Source of the DNA: Escherichia phage vB_EcoS_PNS1
Reading direction: 5' to 3' (one strand)
Sequence record: NC_073063.1
Length of the DNA stretch: 43,945 nt
The notes beneath the pieces were generated by a model, which made no database searches, was not told the DNA's origin, and saw only the letters and a list, made by a program, of their open reading frames with translations. This document shows, piece after piece, positions 9,722 through 29,781 of this stretch (positions are counted from its first letter, which is position 1; each line of letters opens with the position of its first letter). The position numbers and the translations under genes are program-made.

Positions 9722-9726
9722 TAAAC

Positions 9727-9752
9727 AAAAAACCCCTCACGCGAGGGGTTAA
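9727..9752. terminator. bidirectional rho-independent terminator between J gene and convergent lipoprotein gene
   Basis: Stem aacccctc/gaggggtt with A-run upstream and T-run downstream. Confidence 0.5.
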
Positions 9753-9755
9753 CTT

Positions 9756-9998
9756 TTAATAATCAATGACGCAGTTTGAAGGCGAACCAATCCTTCGGTG
9801 TTCGTGGCTAATCTCCTGGCACCACTGACCCGTATAAGGTAGCTTTTCGGTATCGTAAACCAAAGACCCGTCTTCATGTCGCTCAATAGGCTGAGGTATT
9901 ACACCCGAATTTGGAACGCCTGTGTTTACGCCATTGCCACATGCTGTCATCAGAAGGCACGCCGCGGGTATTATCAGATTTTTGATTAAAGTTTTCAT
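9756..9998 (-). CDS. small lipoprotein, candidate Cor/Llp-like superinfection exclusion protein
   Basis: Internal ATG at 9998 with GGAG RBS gives 80 aa starting MKTLIKNLIIPAACLLMTAC (signal peptide plus lipobox-like Cys); sits between J and tail fiber genes. Confidence 0.55.
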   Translation of the reverse strand: MKTLIKNLIIPAACLLMTACGNGVNTGVPNSGVIPQPIERHEDGSLVYDTEKLPYTGQWCQEISHEHRRIGSPSNCVIDY

Positions 9999-10078
9999 GG
10001 TATAATCTCCGGTATTGGGTTGAGTTTTAGTATTACACCGCTCAATCAAGAATGCAACCAATTTAAGAGGATTTAGCT

Positions 10079-13480: not shown

Positions 13481-13946
13481 GTAGCTCACTCTCGCTCATT
13501 ATTTCAATTTGTGCGCTGCCGATTGGTGGCGCTTCGTCAAAGATTATCAATTGCTGGCACTTGTTATTGCTCGGCCCGACTTCACCGGTGACCGCATGGA
13601 TGAATCGTACACGCCAGTCCAGAAGAATTATCAGGTTTGCAGTCTTCCGGGCCAACTTCGCCCACTTCGTCGACGTGTCCTGATTCAGTAGCATGACAGT
13701 CCGGCGTCCGTGCGCTGCACACTCGACCCACGGCAGCGGATCGGAATACGGCGGATTGCACCACTTCCACCCTTTCAACTCTGACCAGTCCACTTCAAGC
13801 GCGCTGTGATCTGCCGTGAAATAACGCGGTAGCAGATGGTTGGCGTCGCTTGCCGCCATGTCATAACGGAATCGGTACTTCCGGCGCAGCGGTTTAAATA
13901 AAGCTGGCGGCGTGCGCCAGCTATCTTTTTGCTCACTCTTCTGCAT
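13461..13946 (-). CDS. dam: DNA N6-adenine methyltransferase (phage Dam family)
   Basis: 161 aa with WRTPP...CNPPYSD (NPPY catalytic motif), typical of small phage Dam methylases. Confidence 0.85.
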   Translation of the reverse strand: MQKSEQKDSWRTPPALFKPLRRKYRFRYDMAASDANHLLPRYFTADHSALEVDWSELKGWKWCNPPYSDPLPWVECAAHGRRTVMLLNQDTSTKWAKLARKTANLIILLDWRVRFIHAVTGEVGPSNNKCQQLIIFDEAPPIGSAQIEIMSESELHEYLNR

Positions 13947-14397
13947 GACCTGGATCTATCGCGTATAAAGGGACTTTATTGCCGGTTTTCATAACGCGTT
14001 GGACGCGCTTCGACTCCTCGGCGCTCATTGGGCGCATATCAGTGCTGTAACCACCGTTTGATGTATGCCGCCACGCCATAAGCACCAGGTCTTTCCGGTC
14101 AATCTTAGACTGGCGGCCCTTCGGACGGACGTACTCCTCGGCCAGTTTGCAATGCTCGCGCAGACCTTCGGCAGTGATGCGGTTTAGCGCGACGGTGGTT
14201 GTGTACCCGGTGCGCTGCATAATACCCATCAACTCATACAGCAGTTCGAAGCGCTCCTCTAACTCCTTGCGCATCTTTTCCTCGCCTTCATAGCTCGCCA
14301 TGTAGGTATCCGCCAGCGCGTTCGCCCGTTCGACCTGTTCGCGGGCTTCGAGGCATTGCGCGGCCCAGTAATTTTTCTCTTCTTGTAAAATTTTCAT
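13933..14397 (-). CDS. hypothetical protein
   Basis: 154 aa, GGAGA RBS; hairpin plus T-run lies in its 5-prime leader (14412-14437). Confidence 0.5.
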   Translation of the reverse strand: MKILQEEKNYWAAQCLEAREQVERANALADTYMASYEGEEKMRKELEERFELLYELMGIMQRTGYTTTVALNRITAEGLREHCKLAEEYVRPKGRQSKIDRKDLVLMAWRHTSNGGYSTDMRPMSAEESKRVQRVMKTGNKVPLYAIDPGHAEE

Positions 14398-25098: not shown

Positions 25099-27363
25099 AT
25101 GAGCTTAATTAAATTCGCTGTAACACGACCCGCTAAAAAAGGCGAAAAAGCCAGGGCGGAAAACTTCCAGATGACCACCGATGAATTTTTCGAATTTATC
25201 AATGACGCGAAAGAAATCTCCTCGGTGCATATCAACAAGACGGAAGATAAAGCCGAGTATGCGCGCCGCAAGCGTAAGGCCGATGGCATCGTGGCGTATA
25301 CCAGTGACGGCTTACGCCGCAAGACCAGTGCGGTGGACCGCTCGATCCTGTTCTTCGATATTGACCGCACCGACACCCGCACCTTACGCCGCTGCCGTAA
25401 GGCTTTCATCGACGCGGGGCTGGAGCACGTATTCCACACCACTACGGGCGACCGCCACCCGCTGAAGGGCGGAACGCGTTGCGCCCGTTTCCTGGTGCTC
25501 ACTGACAAGCCTGTCCCGGCGGAAGACCTGGGCCGTGTCCAGTATGCGCTATTACACCAACTGGGTCTGTCAGATGTGGACTTCGACGATTGCACGAAAG
25601 ACACAAACCGCCTGATGTACCTGCCGCACCAGCAATCGGTTATTAAGTGCCACTATGGCAAACGTGCCAGTGTCCGTCGTCTGCTTCGCCTGGCGGATAA
25701 GCTGGGGGTGGAGAAGGAGGAAGTCCGCCGCGAACTGACCAAGGGCGACGACGCCGTGGCAGACGGCATTCTGGACTGGTGCTTCCAGGCGGGATTCGAG
25801 GAGTTATCTTCCGGGCGGGGCTATGAAGTGCCGTGCCCTAACGAACACCTGCACAGCGGCGAAGGGTCCACCGCCATAATGGTCAAGGATGGCGAGATCC
25901 GTTTCAAGTGTATGCACACCGGCAACGAGTGCTGCTCGGAGCTGAACAGACACCAGCACCTGGCGCTCCGTCTTATCGGTATCCCGGACCACCTGAACGT
26001 CGAGCCGCACAACATGTCACGTAAGCAAATCGCCGCCATCCTGCCAGGTCTGGACGACGAGGAAGTCGAATCATTATATGATCATATTGTTGATGCGGTA
26101 GGCGACGGCGAAGAATACGGCGTGTGCACCGATTCGGATCTGGATAACGAGCCGGTCGCACTGTTCAGCAAGCACGACCCGATCATCGAAGGTCTGATTA
26201 ACTTTAAATCGACCTGGTATCTCGCCGGTGAGTCGAACATTGGTAAGTCTTTCTATGTGCTGGGGCAAATGGCTTCAGTATCTGCCGGTATTCCGTTTGG
26301 TGGGGCGAAGGTCGTCCAGTGCCACAACTTCTATTTCGATGCGGAAGGTGGTGAAGCCTCTAACCAGCGTAAAGAAGCATTGCAGATTAAATACGAGCAC
26401 GACCTGGATAAGCTGCACATTATCGATCTGCAATCACGCGGCTGGGATATCACCAGCAAATCAGGCTTGCGCGAAGTTATCAGCTTTATCAACCGCACCG
26501 CTAACGGCGAACCGGTTGGCCTGGTGGCGTTCGACTCACTCAACCAGACTGTTGCGTTGCGGTCCGCGGATGCTAAACCGTTCGACGAGAACAACGCCAG
26601 CGATATGGGTGAAGTGGTCAAAGCGCTGAAGGCCATCGCGGAAAATACAGGTGGCAGTGCGGGCGTCATCCACCACCCGGCGAAGGGTGCAAACGGCAGC
26701 AGAACCCCACGCGGGTCCGGCGCGCTGCATGGTGCTGTCGATTCTGCGTTCTTCCTGGAACAGCCGGACGACAACCAGCCAGGCCAATTGAACCTGTATC
26801 ACGAAAAGGCACGTAACGGCATCAAGCAAGCGCCGCGAGGCTTCGTCCTGCTCAAGTGCAAGGTGAAGGTGGATCTCCGCAAGTCAGAAGCGTTCGCGTC
26901 GCACCAGTCCACCAGCACCGGGCCAGACTTCGGTGACGTGGTTGCCGGTTGGGACGTCAAGCCAATTGCATCCACGCCACGCGACGAGACTCTGTATCTC
27001 GTACCGGTCGCCCTGGCACCGTTCGCCATCGAACAGGCAAAGTCCGCTGGCAAGGCCGCAGTTAAGGAAGAGAACGCCGCAGGACCGCGCAATGAAAAAG
27101 AGAAAGTGCTCTATGCGGCGCTGGAAAAACTGATGGAAGATAACCCGGACAATACCGGATTCAGCAAATCGGCAATTGTCCGCCAGGCTGGACTGGCAAA
27201 AGGTGGAACATCGACGAAGGCAATCGACGATATGGTCGAGCGCGGCGTACTCGGTTTTTATACAGACCCACACACCGGAGCCATCTATGGGTCGTCGAAT
27301 ATCGTCATCAAAACGAATATACCCATCACGCTTTCGGCGACCGATGACGACCTGAAAGATTAA
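25099..27363 (+). CDS. primase/helicase-type replication initiator (RecA-fold ATPase domain)
   Basis: 754 aa; Walker A GESNIGKS, Walker B-like LVAFDSLNQ; central Cys/His cluster; iterons begin at its stop codon. Confidence 0.85.
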   Translation: MSLIKFAVTRPAKKGEKARAENFQMTTDEFFEFINDAKEISSVHINKTEDKAEYARRKRKADGIVAYTSDGLRRKTSAVDRSILFFDIDRTDTRTLRRCRKAFIDAGLEHVFHTTTGDRHPLKGGTRCARFLVLTDKPVPAEDLGRVQYALLHQLGLSDVDFDDCTKDTNRLMYLPHQQSVIKCHYGKRASVRRLLRLADKLGVEKEEVRRELTKGDDAVADGILDWCFQAGFEELSSGRGYEVPCPNEHLHSGEGSTAIMVKDGEIRFKCMHTGNECCSELNRHQHLALRLIGIPDHLNVEPHNMSRKQIAAILPGLDDEEVESLYDHIVDAVGDGEEYGVCTDSDLDNEPVALFSKHDPIIEGLINFKSTWYLAGESNIGKSFYVLGQMASVSAGIPFGGAKVVQCHNFYFDAEGGEASNQRKEALQIKYEHDLDKLHIIDLQSRGWDITSKSGLREVISFINRTANGEPVGLVAFDSLNQTVALRSADAKPFDENNASDMGEVVKALKAIAENTGGSAGVIHHPAKGANGSRTPRGSGALHGAVDSAFFLEQPDDNQPGQLNLYHEKARNGIKQAPRGFVLLKCKVKVDLRKSEAFASHQSTSTGPDFGDVVAGWDVKPIASTPRDETLYLVPVALAPFAIEQAKSAGKAAVKEENAAGPRNEKEKVLYAALEKLMEDNPDNTGFSKSAIVRQAGLAKGGTSTKAIDDMVERGVLGFYTDPHTGAIYGSSNIVIKTNIPITLSATDDDLKD

Positions 27364-27500
27364 TTTGTGCGCGCATTGGTTGCCGATATGGGAATTCCCA
27401 TATCGCTAAAAGATTAATTTGTGCGCGCATTGGTTGCCGATATGGGAATTCCCATATCGCTAAAAGATTAAATTCTGCGCGCATTGGTTGCCATTTAGGG
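27361..27500. repeat. tandem 54-bp iterons each with a 20-bp perfect palindrome; candidate replication origin
   Basis: Units at 27361-27414 and 27415-27468 are identical, third partial; palindrome GATATGGGAATTCCCATATC at 27385-27404 and 27439-27458; each unit carries ATTGGTTGCC. Confidence 0.8.
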
Positions 27501-27544
27501 TGTTTTTATCCGGTCGTATTGGTTGCCGTGTAGTGTAAATATAA

Positions 27545-27740
27545 TGAATAGTTATGCAGTTTTATTGCATAAAGTAAGCGGGACAGAAAGCGGGACAAAC
27601 AAGGGGCGGGACAAAGCGGGACAGCACCCCTGTCCCGCCCCGGATGACGCGGCCTGGCGAGGAGCGGGACAGGCGGGACAAACCCCAGTCTTTCAGACTA
27701 GACGGGGGGTCTGTCACCCCCCTCGTCTGAGACTGCATAA
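27545..27740. repeat. GCGGGACA repeat array with palindrome GGGACAGCACCCCTGTCCC and terminal hairpin; copy B
   Basis: About 190 bp, about 85 percent identical by eye to the 3-prime part of 113-432; palindrome at 27618-27636. Confidence 0.8.
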
Positions 27741-27894
27741 AATCCGGTATTGCAAAATACACGGCAGCATGTTGCGGATCGCGGTCGTCGCTGAACTAGG
27801 CAACCAATGCGAGATGCAGAACGGGGTGTGAAAAATGCAGTTTGCAGATTCAGCAGATAGCGATCAACTTTTTCATACGCGTGATTAATATTGG

Positions 27895-27923
27895 TTGCAT
27901 CCGCCCTGACACACTGCTATATT
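27895..27923 (+). promoter_or_regulatory. candidate promoter for the small-gene block
   Basis: TTGCAT, 17-bp spacer, TATATT; overlaps two ATTGGTTGCA motifs. Confidence 0.4.
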
Positions 27924-27950
27924 GGTTGCACACCAACAGGAGGGCGGAAC

Positions 27951-28130
27951 ATGAAAACCGAAATGGCTGATAAGCACGAAATCAAGATCGGCGATACGGT
28001 AGTCCACAACGGGGAGCTTCGCACTGTGTGCAAGCGAGCGTTTAGCATCGATGAATTTATGGGCCTGCTACTTTGGGGCGACAGCTATCGTTTAGGGTAT
28101 AAACTGGTTGAGAGGGTTACGGAACTATGA
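27951..28130 (+). CDS. hypothetical protein
   Basis: 59 aa from ATG 27951 with AGGAGG RBS. Confidence 0.5.
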   Translation: MKTEMADKHEIKIGDTVVHNGELRTVCKRAFSIDEFMGLLLWGDSYRLGYKLVERVTEL

Positions 28131-28453
28131 AAGCGATTATCTGGAATTACGCAATGGCTATGGCGGCGGCACAAGAGGCGGCGGAGTTCGCCGGTGAAGG
28201 AGCGGAAGCGGTCGAAAGACTAGCGGCAGCGTGGTCCGTTGTTCGCGTCACGCAGCAGGCCATCGCTTGTATGCTTGAGCGCCGCTTCGATACGACGGCA
28301 GAGATCCTGCCCCTGGCGAACGCAATCCAGGACTACGCGATGGCGTTTGCCCGTGAGCGCCTGGCGTATCGCTTCGGGATCGGCGAGACGGCAGCAACAA
28401 ACGTTGCCCGGATTAAAGCCCAGCGCGAACTTTTCGCCCAGCTTGCGAAATAA
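28127..28453 (+). CDS. hypothetical protein
   Basis: 108 aa, Ala-rich helical; ATGA overlap with upstream gene. Confidence 0.5.
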   Translation: MKAIIWNYAMAMAAAQEAAEFAGEGAEAVERLAAAWSVVRVTQQAIACMLERRFDTTAEILPLANAIQDYAMAFARERLAYRFGIGETAATNVARIKAQRELFAQLAK

Positions 28454-28462
28454 GGGGCCAAA

Positions 28463-28732
28463 ATGAGCCGTAGGCGCGCTAAACAGCTTTCCTGGCATAT
28501 TCCACTGCATTGCCTACGCATATGGGCTAAGAATGCGGCTGAGGGCGATTCTGTGTTCTGGAGCTATCGCGACGATGTGAAGCCGTTGACGCAGACACGC
28601 TACTTGCACCAGTTCGCAGCAAAACACGATTTCAGGGTGCGGACTTCCTTGCAACCAATGGGAATCCGTATTACATTACGCCGGAAGCCCGCCGTTGAGC
28701 GGGTAGGCAAACACTGGAGACTGAGCAAATGA
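28463..28732 (+). CDS. hypothetical basic protein
   Basis: 89 aa, Arg/Lys-rich; AAGGGG RBS. Confidence 0.5.
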   Translation: MSRRRAKQLSWHIPLHCLRIWAKNAAEGDSVFWSYRDDVKPLTQTRYLHQFAAKHDFRVRTSLQPMGIRITLRRKPAVERVGKHWRLSK

Positions 28733-28881
28733 CACCAATGCAAAAAACAATAATGGCGGGATTCTCGCAGGAGTTTATAGACCTGGAATCCTGCCATGAC
28801 GCCTACAAACATTACGGCATCGCTACTGTGTGCGATGGCGACACGAAAACTGCCGATGAGATTGAGGAGACAGAACAATGA
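28729..28881 (+). CDS. small hypothetical protein (50 aa)
   Basis: ATGA overlaps on both sides (28729 and 28878); not in the ORF track. Confidence 0.35.
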   Translation: MTPMQKTIMAGFSQEFIDLESCHDAYKHYGIATVCDGDTKTADEIEETEQ

Positions 28882-29087
28882 AATTACTATTCCGCCGCAA
28901 ATCGGACGGGCGCATTCTTAAGCCGATACAGACCCTTGACGCATACGTGCGCCTACAACAACCGGCAAGCAAAAAAGTATTCCGCGCGCCAACAAGCACG
29001 CTGCCACAGTTCTTCACAGTACACTCCCACGATATCGAGCGTGGCGATGTGCTGCGTGATATTCGCGACGGCAGTATGTGGGGGTAG
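28878..29087 (+). CDS. hypothetical protein
   Basis: 69 aa, coupled to upstream ORF. Confidence 0.45.
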   Translation: MKLLFRRKSDGRILKPIQTLDAYVRLQQPASKKVFRAPTSTLPQFFTVHSHDIERGDVLRDIRDGSMWG

Positions 29088-29138
29088 CCTGGCGGCACTG
29101 GTGCTGTTGGCGTCGGTTATTAGTCTGGTTAAATACCT

Positions 29139-29438
29139 ATGGGGCAGATTATGATTCATGATGTGATTTATTGGTTTGGTATGGCTAGCATGTTATGCCT
29201 GGTTACGGGAGTGCTGGGCGCAATATGGGTATTCCTGGTATGGCCCGCGGTAGAAGCCGCCAGCATTACCCGCATGACGTTCCAGATATACAAGCGCCGT
29301 GGAATCACGGAGCACCCGACCAGGTTGCGCATGTGGTGGCTGTGGTATCGGGATATGATAGGCGGTCGAACATTCGAAGCCGTCCGTTCATCCGGGTGGG
29401 AGTGGAAAGGCGTCGGCAAGTGGTCCGTTTTCGATTAA
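29139..29438 (+). CDS. membrane protein
   Basis: 99 aa with hydrophobic N-terminal segment and Trp-rich region. Confidence 0.45.
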   Translation: MGQIMIHDVIYWFGMASMLCLVTGVLGAIWVFLVWPAVEAASITRMTFQIYKRRGITEHPTRLRMWWLWYRDMIGGRTFEAVRSSGWEWKGVGKWSVFD

Positions 29439-29455
29439 TTATGCAAGCGTGATAT

Positions 29456-29490
29456 AGTCCCAGTGAGCTAAAACTTACTGGGACTTTTTT
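29456..29490 (+). terminator. hairpin plus T6 immediately upstream of holin-like gene (attenuator)
   Basis: Stem agtcccagt/actgggact then tttttt, ending one base before ATG 29491. Confidence 0.5.
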
Positions 29491-29781
29491 ATGGATAAGC
29501 TAAACGAGTGGCTATTCGCCCTGGCATGTCTGGCGGGTGGCTTCGTAGGCGCACGCATTCATGGCGATGCTACGAAAGGGCCGCTAAACTTCGTTTTGTA
29601 TGTTGTAGTTGGCTTCCTGTGTGCCATATTTGGCGCACCGGCTATCGCTGAGTGGGCTGGTTTGTCGGGTGAGCGCACTGTCGCCGGTTTGGGCTTCGTA
29701 ACCGCGATCTTCTGGATGCCAATCGCCGACCGGATCAGGGAGACTATTGCGTCGTTCCGACTTCCGGGGGGTGCAAAATGA
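29491..29781 (+). CDS. holin-like membrane protein
   Basis: 96 aa with predicted transmembrane segments; directly upstream of endolysin. Confidence 0.5.
   Translation: MDKLNEWLFALACLAGGFVGARIHGDATKGPLNFVLYVVVGFLCAIFGAPAIAEWAGLSGERTVAGLGFVTAIFWMPIADRIRETIASFRLPGGAK

Follow-up and report, generated by a model that had tools for sequence, protein, structure and literature searches.

A predicted operon of small genes between the replication and lysis modules of Escherichia phage vB_EcoS_PNS1

Positions 27951-29087 of the 43,945-nt sequence of Escherichia phage vB_EcoS_PNS1 (NC_073063.1; the window below means this whole stretch) hold a chain of five small genes, denoted here g1 to g4 and g5', located between the primase-helicase and origin module and the lysis cassette. 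Comparison with related genomes indicates that these genes are protein-coding, evolve under purifying selection and are translationally coupled, that they are the first five cistrons of a predicted rightward operon of ~1.5 kb, and that the last one is a dead stump left by a microhomology-mediated deletion. An accessory role in the interaction with the host, that is, host takeover or counter-defence, appears to be the single most likely function of the operon, held here with about even confidence, because the block is plastic and because two small Dhillonvirus proteins, anti-Tmn and Ksap1, set a precedent.

Coding status and translational coupling

The sequence-only reading of this region described five open reading frames (ORFs) of 59, 108, 89, 50 and 69 amino acids (aa), mostly joined by ATGA-type start/stop overlaps. 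The coordinates and lengths proved exact (Table 1), and three of the four junctions (g1/g2, g3/g4 and g4/g5') are of the ATGA type, with a gap of 9 nt between g2 and g3. In a codon-usage log-odds model trained on twelve long genes from this phage, the annotated frame scored highest of the six frames for all five ORFs, g3 being the weakest, with a marginal score of -0.07. Shine-Dalgarno-like sites (AGGAGG, GAGG, AGG, GGAG and AGGAG, from g1 to g5') lie 7-11 nt upstream of the starts, the AGGAGG of g1 at 7 nt. Each ORF belongs to one PHROG family without an assigned function (E-values of 1e-24 to 1e-58), and the hidden Markov model (HMM) matches of g1-g4 span nearly the whole profile, so that these four are members of the respective families. 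The ratios of mean nonsynonymous to mean synonymous substitution rates (dN/dS) given in Table 1 were obtained with 6-17 orthologues per gene; pairwise values across the five ORFs were 0.17-0.36, compared with 0.07-0.11 for the two holins and the endolysin.

Codon score, Shine-Dalgarno sites, dN/dS and PHROG membership are thus all positive; neither the lack of conservation nor the lack of coding signal that the sequence-only reading had named as counting against it was found, and the genes are therefore real. The alternative that these frames stay open by chance within a spacer of non-coding or regulatory nature, which would fit their short length (50-108 aa), the lack of Pfam domains and the marginal g3 codon score, is excluded by the top rank of the correct frame in all five cases, the dN/dS and PHROG values, the start/stop coupling kept in relatives and the model of the g2 protein, with a predicted local distance difference test score (pLDDT) of 96.7.

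Promoter, terminator and extent of the operon

The candidate promoter that had been placed ahead of the block is borne out by a phylogenetic footprint. The predicted sigma-70-type extended -10 promoter consists of TTGCAT, a 17-nt spacer and TGc-TATATT; in an alignment of 16 Dhillonvirus loci, the -35 hexamer is invariant and the -10 hexamer is TATATT in 13 and TAGATT in the remaining three, whereas the spacer varies freely. The site thus has the expected properties of this promoter class, namely, a TGnTATAAT-like -10 element, a -35-like hexamer, and conservation of the hexamers rather than of the spacer. A consensus scanner did not list it because its -35 element agrees with the consensus at only 3 of 6 positions. 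The genome-wide motif ATATTGGTTGCA overlaps the promoter twice, at 27888-27899 and 27919-27930.

At the other end, a GC-rich hairpin followed by a U-run forms a predicted intrinsic terminator (dG -24.1 kcal/mol, z-score -6.2 versus shuffled sequences). The hairpin is invariant in 15 loci, and in the most divergent one (L011) a compensatory C:G pair insertion keeps the structure. Besides this hairpin, no RNA feature came up in Rfam and tRNA scans across the region. The promoter footprint together with the downstream terminator delimits a transcription unit of about 27930-29490. Hence, the coupling of the five genes described in the sequence-only reading holds, but the end of the chain at 29087 does not: the predicted operon continues to the terminator.

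The first bases of the terminator stem are shared with an invariant extended -10-like sequence, TGaTATAGT (29450-29458). Transcription from this element would start in the 5' arm of the hairpin and would therefore escape termination. The likely ribosome-binding site (RBS) of the holin gene (GGGA) falls in the 3' arm. The segment 29440-29495 may be a junction of late promoter, terminator and translation control for the lysis genes.

Table 1. Predicted features of the operon and sites of the 8-mer TTGGTTGC in the window
Feature	Position	Strand	Details
Predicted sigma-70-type extended -10 promoter	27895-27923	+	-35 TTGCAT 27895-27900; TG 27915-27916; -10 TATATT 27918-27923
g1	27951-28130	+	59 aa; phrog_3623, E 2.5e-30; dN/dS 0.26
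g2	28127-28453	+	108 aa; phrog_9839, E 6.9e-47; dN/dS 0.36
g3	28463-28732	+	89 aa; isoelectric point (pI) 11.5; phrog_12533, E 4.2e-58; dN/dS 0.20
g4	28729-28881	+	50 aa; pI 4.2; phrog_15977, E 2.8e-24; dN/dS 0.20
g5'	28878-29087	+	69 aa; phrog_10243; first 68 codons, one junction-derived codon and stop; dN/dS 0.28
Residual membrane-peptide ORF	29047-29154	+	possible 35-aa product MCCVIFATAVCGGSLAALVLLASVISLVKYLWGRL; weak RBS
Deletion junction	29073-29081	.	9-bp microhomology AGTATGTGG; both flanks aligned
g6	29151-29438	+	95 aa; phrog_2531; last cistron; dN/dS 0.19
Predicted intrinsic terminator	29456-29491	+	12-bp GC-rich stem 29456-29485, then T-run (TTTTTT) up to holin ATG 29491
TTGGTTGC sites, origin	27376, 27430, 27484, 27519 (+); 27807 (-)		
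TTGGTTGC sites, block promoter	27891, 27922	+	
TTGGTTGC sites, other pairs	14460, 14477 (-); 38353, 38367 (-); 12787 (-) / 12792 (+); 21689, 21705 (+)		
TTGGTTGC sites, single	24562 (+); 10061, 17419, 30735, 28658, 5175 (-)		

A deletion remnant in fifth position and the end of the operon

The sequence-only reading counted five small genes, of which the first four are intact; it overlooked that the fifth is a remnant. The g5' product matches its PHROG profile (E 2.5e-29) at positions 1-68 of 184 only, whereas orthologues are 174-205 aa long; g5' is thus a truncated member and not a full-length (~184-aa) phrog_10243 protein. Full-length g5 homologues were found in 154 phage records, all of the Dhillonvirus type and none outside the genus. 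In the BLAST alignment with phage SM_S22, the window at ~29082 abuts a point 488 bp further downstream. The microhomology at the junction is common to codons ~65-68 of g5 ('DGSMW', in YD-2008.s-type alleles) and codons ~6-9 of a gene for a 33-aa membrane peptide. Lost in the predicted deletion of ~0.5 kb are the C-terminal two thirds of g5, the start and RBS of the 33-aa ORF, and the whole of a 48-aa gene whose conservation otherwise extends to the most divergent relative. In none of the 132 phage records compared are the flanks contiguous as they are here.

Independent deletions in the interval from g5 to g6 were detected in two phage records (JL1 and BF9) and three metagenome contigs (L034, L035 and L043), affecting g5, the 48-aa gene and/or g6. 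These truncations imply that the interval is deletion-prone and its genes are dispensable at least in some settings; at least the g5-to-g6 part of the operon would then be dispensable for plaque formation. Provided that the genome analysed here stems from a viable phage, the natural deletion marks the g5 C-terminus and the 48-aa gene as dispensable.

The deletion also created a residual ORF, in which an ATG inside g5 is fused in frame to the last 26 codons of the 33-aa transmembrane ORF, to be read against MLYVFAVVCGGSLAALVLLASVISLVKYLWGRL of SM_S22 and Bas14. A 35-aa peptide is a possible product, although its expression is uncertain. This ORF overlaps, by ATGA, the last cistron, g6, whose product has a transmembrane helix at its N-terminus and a C-terminal domain rich in Trp and Arg. 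The true start of g6 is predicted to be the ATG at 29151 and not that at 29139, because the PHROG match begins at residue 5 of the longer ORF and because of the starts of the orthologues.

Genome context, core genes and optional cassettes

The region 27500-29500 matched 157 phage records at 86-92% identity, nearly all of them Escherichia or Shigella Dhillonvirus (HK578-like siphoviruses). Over the right-hand 24 kb, the best relatives are only 92-93% identical, from which we infer that the window is the entire 43.9-kb genome of a new species-level Dhillonvirus. Members of this genus are common therapeutic and model coliphages (Bas14-18 of the BASEL collection; SECphi phages).

Upstream of the block are the gene for a 754-aa primase-helicase and a repeat region (27352-27811), and downstream is the holin-holin-endolysin cassette. 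The same flanking order is found in the annotated genomes of SM_S22, SECphi4 and Bas14 (TheodorHerzl), where the orthologous stretch is labelled 'hypothetical protein' throughout. The orthologues are annotated as coding sequences in all three (SM_S22 CDS0057-0061, SECphi4 gp49-52 and Bas14 0053-0056) and share the gene order, the five PHROG families (phrog_3623, 9839, 12533, 15977 and 10243) and the ATGA couplings; the genome analysed here differs in that its phrog_10243 member retains only 68 of ~184 residues and the following 48-aa gene is gone. A literature search found no paper addressing the genes of this block.

Between its two highly conserved neighbouring modules, the block is where plasticity is greatest, with gain and loss of cassettes, discrete alleles and repeated natural deletions, whereas the adjacent lysis genes mostly share 94-100% identity among loci (~70% in the most divergent one). 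Based on their distribution, g2, g3, g5, the 48-aa gene and g6 are genus-core genes, whereas g1, g4 and the 33-aa peptide gene are optional cassettes.

The g1 gene is present in five of the 16 loci. Where it is absent, g2 directly follows the same promoter and RBS, or else the slot is filled by unrelated 48- or 58-aa cassettes. Genes of the g1 type (at least 80% identity) occur in only 27 records, whereas the family detected by tblastn extends to 422 phage records, including Drexlerviridae, Felixounavirus, T4-like phages of Klebsiella and Enterobacter, and ICP1. In a T1-like Hanrivervirus and a FelixO1-like Felixounavirus, the homologues (40-71% identity) lie within arrays of small early genes; these arrays have g1 alone in common with the block, as g2-g5 have no match outside Dhillonvirus. 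We infer that g1 is an optional, horizontally mobile early-gene cassette of a promiscuous family of small phage proteins. Comparisons of g1 with the 56-aa protein of SECphi4 and with the N-terminal domain of g5 were not significant.

The g4 gene was detected in 100 phage records, compared with ~155 for g2 and g3. Its product is conserved at the C-terminus (GIATVCDGDTKTxDEIEETEQ) but variable at the N-terminus, and might act as an acidic partner or mimic peptide.

Structure and variation of g2 and g3

Both g2 and g3 are present in 155 phage records, in each case of the Dhillonvirus type and none outside the genus; the g2 protein set comprises 117 clusters, every one of which is encoded on phage contigs of ~44 kb. 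The AlphaFold2 model of g2 (pLDDT 96.7; predicted template modelling score 0.88) is an up-down four-helix bundle with helices at residues 2-20, 26-53, 57-83 and 88-107. In the alignment, residues 1-12 are conserved and the C-terminal helix hairpin (residues 63-108, 46 residues) is near-invariant, whereas four or five discrete alleles can be told apart over residues 13-62. Between these alleles, divergence has reached saturation; within them, the ratio of nonsynonymous to synonymous polymorphism is ~0.1-0.25, indicative of purifying selection. In such an arrangement, the invariant hairpin could serve as a common anchor and the allelic helices as a specificity surface. No linkage between g2 and g5 alleles was apparent in the compared loci, suggesting that the g2 and g5 cassettes recombine freely.

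Foldseek searches of g2 against PDB and BFVD returned its own orthologues as the sole significant matches. By eye, the C-terminus of g2 fits the classical pattern of a Cro/CI-type helix-turn-helix (HTH), but this assignment was rejected: the model consists of four long helices (19-28 residues each), the Pfam scores fall well short of the cut-offs (Cro, 12.2 versus 32.7 bits; HTH_Tnp_4, 12.8 versus 27), and the fold searches gave no HTH protein better than E 1.7.

The g3 protein occurs in two forms, one of 89 aa and a common natural one of 59 aa that lacks residues 1-30. It is modelled, with medium confidence (pLDDT 74), as a basic alpha/beta domain, and its generic fold matches include the small nucleic-acid-binding alpha/beta domains YhbY, Smr and AlbA_2; g3 would most likely be a nucleic-acid binder. 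A full HMMER scan of 1.84 billion representative sequences with the g3 profile yielded one convincing outgroup, the 128-aa protein P0140 (E 1.6e-5, 34% identity over ~75 residues; phrog_12533 at E 1.4e-10), the remainder being spurious matches to repeat proteins. P0140 is encoded on an 11-kb contig (L018; Logan contig SRR5343975_795), directly upstream of a hol1-like ORF, a hol2-type holin and a lysozyme. Going by Pfam family assignment, the terminase and portal of this contig (Terminase_6N and DUF4055) differ from those of Dhillonvirus. Scans of viral, genome and metagenome collections did not find a second g3-lysis example, returning Dhillonvirus contigs only. The synteny of g3, hol1, hol2 and lysozyme in the P0140 contig is the sole indication that g3 may be functionally linked to the lysis or late cassette.

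Two further observations concern g3 and its relative. The hol1-like ORF of the P0140 contig is an unannotated homologue of Dhillonvirus holin 1 (contig positions 1754-2035) that fills the apparent 366-nt gap between P0140 and the hol2-type holin. Within g3, one minus-strand copy of TTGGTTGC occupies 28651-28658, and codons L63-Q64-P65 (TTG CAA CCA) show no synonymous change among 16 orthologues while the neighbouring codons vary; P0140 does not keep these residues. The pattern hints at DNA-level constraint inside the g3 coding sequence.

Function of the operon

As the sequence-only reading had stated, the block contains no recognised motifs: searches of Pfam, NCBIfam, PADLOC and PDB sequences gave nothing significant for the block proteins. 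In PADLOC-DB, a set of anti-phage defence HMMs, no family was matched at E <= 1 by the block proteins or by the full-length g5 and 48-aa proteins of SECphi4. Comparison with PDB chains (phmmer/hmmsearch) gave nothing below E 0.3 for g1, g4 and the profiles of g2, g3 and g5, and no block ORF matched the Pfam Q family (lambda-Q-type antiterminators).

Two recent papers report that small genus-restricted proteins of Dhillonvirus decide the outcome of the encounter with Tmn (PMC11846954) and Avs2 (PMC11564622). Anti-Tmn (ORF35 of SM_S22) is a small protein acting against Tmn (PMC11846954), and Ksap1 is a 74-aa trigger of KpAvs2 encoded between methyltransferase and phosphatase genes (PMC11564622). 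In both cases, natural allelic variation shifts the outcome versus host defence, and g2, g4 and g5 vary in the same manner, although the anti-Tmn and Ksap1 genes, unlike the block, lie in the leftward early arm. A third small protein that has been tied to host defence, the 56-aa protein of SECphi4, is encoded just downstream of an intergenic region that is mutated in escaper phages (bioRxiv 10.1101/2022.08.27.505566). The possibility that a block protein is itself one of these three was rejected, all three being located elsewhere. The first 60 aa published for the anti-Tmn variant of SM_S24, which is reported to be inactive against PLG026 Tmn (PMC11846954), match at 100% identity at 14397-14218 on the minus strand, with nothing inside the block; the 154-aa anti-Tmn homologue of this genome occupies 13933-14397 (minus strand). 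Judged by size and neighbours only, none of the five genes fits Ksap1, the block being located between the primase-helicase and the holins.

Given the plasticity of the block, these precedents and the occurrence of g1 homologues within early small-gene arrays, the operon may have an accessory role in adapting infection to different hosts, and its products would be neither enzymes nor virion components, but small binding proteins for host or phage macromolecules. The block is the other large reservoir of small genus-restricted proteins in the genome, besides the defence-linked ones. Of the interpretation put forward in the sequence-only reading, the genuine, coupled small genes behind a promoter and without motifs stand; the host-takeover or anti-defence function has circumstantial support only and is not established.

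Several observations weigh against a host-interaction role. The anti-Tmn, Ksap1 and SECphi4 56-aa proteins all map to the leftward arm, outside the block, and the searches with the block proteins found no sequence or fold likeness to a characterised anti-defence, takeover or regulatory protein. The presence of g2, g3 and g5 in 154-155 of the 157 region-matching records looks more like a conserved life-cycle role than optional cargo. The nucleic-acid-binding role that is most likely for g3 rests on its charge and on the medium-confidence model. Furthermore, the infected-cell proteome of EE09, the one Dhillonvirus proteome, contains no report of block proteins.

In phage lambda, the nin region (ren and the nin genes) lies between the replication gene P and the gene for the late regulator Q; it consists of small genes, often with overlapping starts and stops, that are mosaic among relatives and largely dispensable, as in the nin5 deletion. 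The position of the block between the replication and the lysis or late modules matches that of the nin region. The two differ in that they have no sequence or Pfam relation, the block has its own promoter and terminator, and the phage, which is virulent and not lambdoid, has no recognisable Q-like gene.

This parallel bears on a second reading, which we consider possible but distinctly less probable than host interaction, namely, that the block is a regulatory or lysis-linked module in which g3, and perhaps g2, controls late or lysis gene expression or binds TTGGTTGC, in the manner of lambda Q plus nin. It is kept alive by the near-universal presence of g2 and g3 (155 Dhillonvirus records each), the basic character of g3 (pI 11.5) and its fold akin to YhbY, Smr and AlbA_2 among generic matches, the position of P0140, which immediately precedes a homologous hol1-hol2-lysozyme cassette in a phage contig of otherwise different content, and the junction before the holins, where the operon terminator abuts the holin start codon with the invariant TGaTATAGT ahead of it. 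Moreover, the annotations of these genomes include no late regulator, and the block promoter belongs to a family of TTGGTTGC-bearing sites (21 copies versus 1.3 expected) that is conserved in SM_S22. However, there is no Pfam match to Q-type antiterminators or DNA-binding families, and the HTH idea for g2 fails on the Pfam scores and the model with four long helices. The g3-lysis linkage comes from one outgroup contig, to which three further collections added no second; TTGGTTGC is absent from that contig, and binding of TTGGTTGC by g3 is unsupported. In Dhillonvirus, four or five cistrons separate g3 from the terminator, and the N-terminally shortened 59-aa g3 is common in nature.

A bolder combination of these ideas seems rather doubtful: that g2 and g3 are a new regulator or host-interaction device, with g3 tied to hol1-hol2-endolysin in two unrelated phage backgrounds, g2 setting specificity, and the operon part of a TTGGTTGC regulon together with the origin iterons, the anti-Tmn gene and the DNA-modification gene nmad5; or else that g1, g2, g4 and g5 include anti-defence proteins of new families.

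It is improbable that the products are replication-accessory proteins, such as origin-binding, helicase-loading or recombination helper proteins. Such a role would fit the location of the block right behind the 754-aa primase-helicase gene and the repeat region, the presence of TTGGTTGC in both its promoter and the origin repeats, and the basic nature of g3; but none of the proteins resembles any replication protein family, replication machinery does not typically gain and lose cassettes or exchange alleles, the g1 homologues in other phages are not located beside origins, and the recognisable replication genes (polymerase, SSB, helicase and exonuclease) are in the leftward arm.

What the analysis supplies is a map of the operon from promoter to terminator, with its cistrons and their true starts, the split into core and optional genes, and a confident fold for g2. 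The anatomy of the block is corrected and the leads are testable; to a phage specialist, it will look unsurprising, an ordinary accessory region.

Genome-wide motif, origin-like region and a variable gap

The excess of the 8-mer TTGGTTGC compares with a maximum of five copies in 200 shuffled sequences, and SM_S22 likewise has 21 copies, nearly all at matching positions. The copies are mostly intergenic, often paired, and located at or beside promoter-like hexamers (Table 1). Some precede the small-gene block, the anti-Tmn homologue and an nmad5-like gene, and others flank the origin as iterons; the leaders of the block and of the nmad5 gene share an identical 22-mer, TATATTGGTTGCACACCAACAG. 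No copy is present in the P0140 contig. The motif looks like a promoter element specific to the phage or else like the putative operator or iteron of a DNA-binding protein that the phage encodes.

In the origin-like region (27352-27811), a perfect 22-bp palindrome, CGATATGGGAATTCCCATATCG, is part of two of the three 54-bp direct repeats, and GCGGGACA iterons of either orientation form a cluster; the region is bracketed by four direct and one inverted CGCATTGGTTGCC sites. The 102-aa and 52-aa ORFs in this region are probably repeat artefacts because the codon score of the 102-aa ORF is poor.

Elsewhere in the genome, a 357-nt gap at 9722-10078 contains a promoter-like site on the minus strand (TTGGTTGCAT, a 16-nt spacer and TAATAC); at this position, SM_S22 has two plus-strand genes for membrane proteins, following that for the large tail protein.

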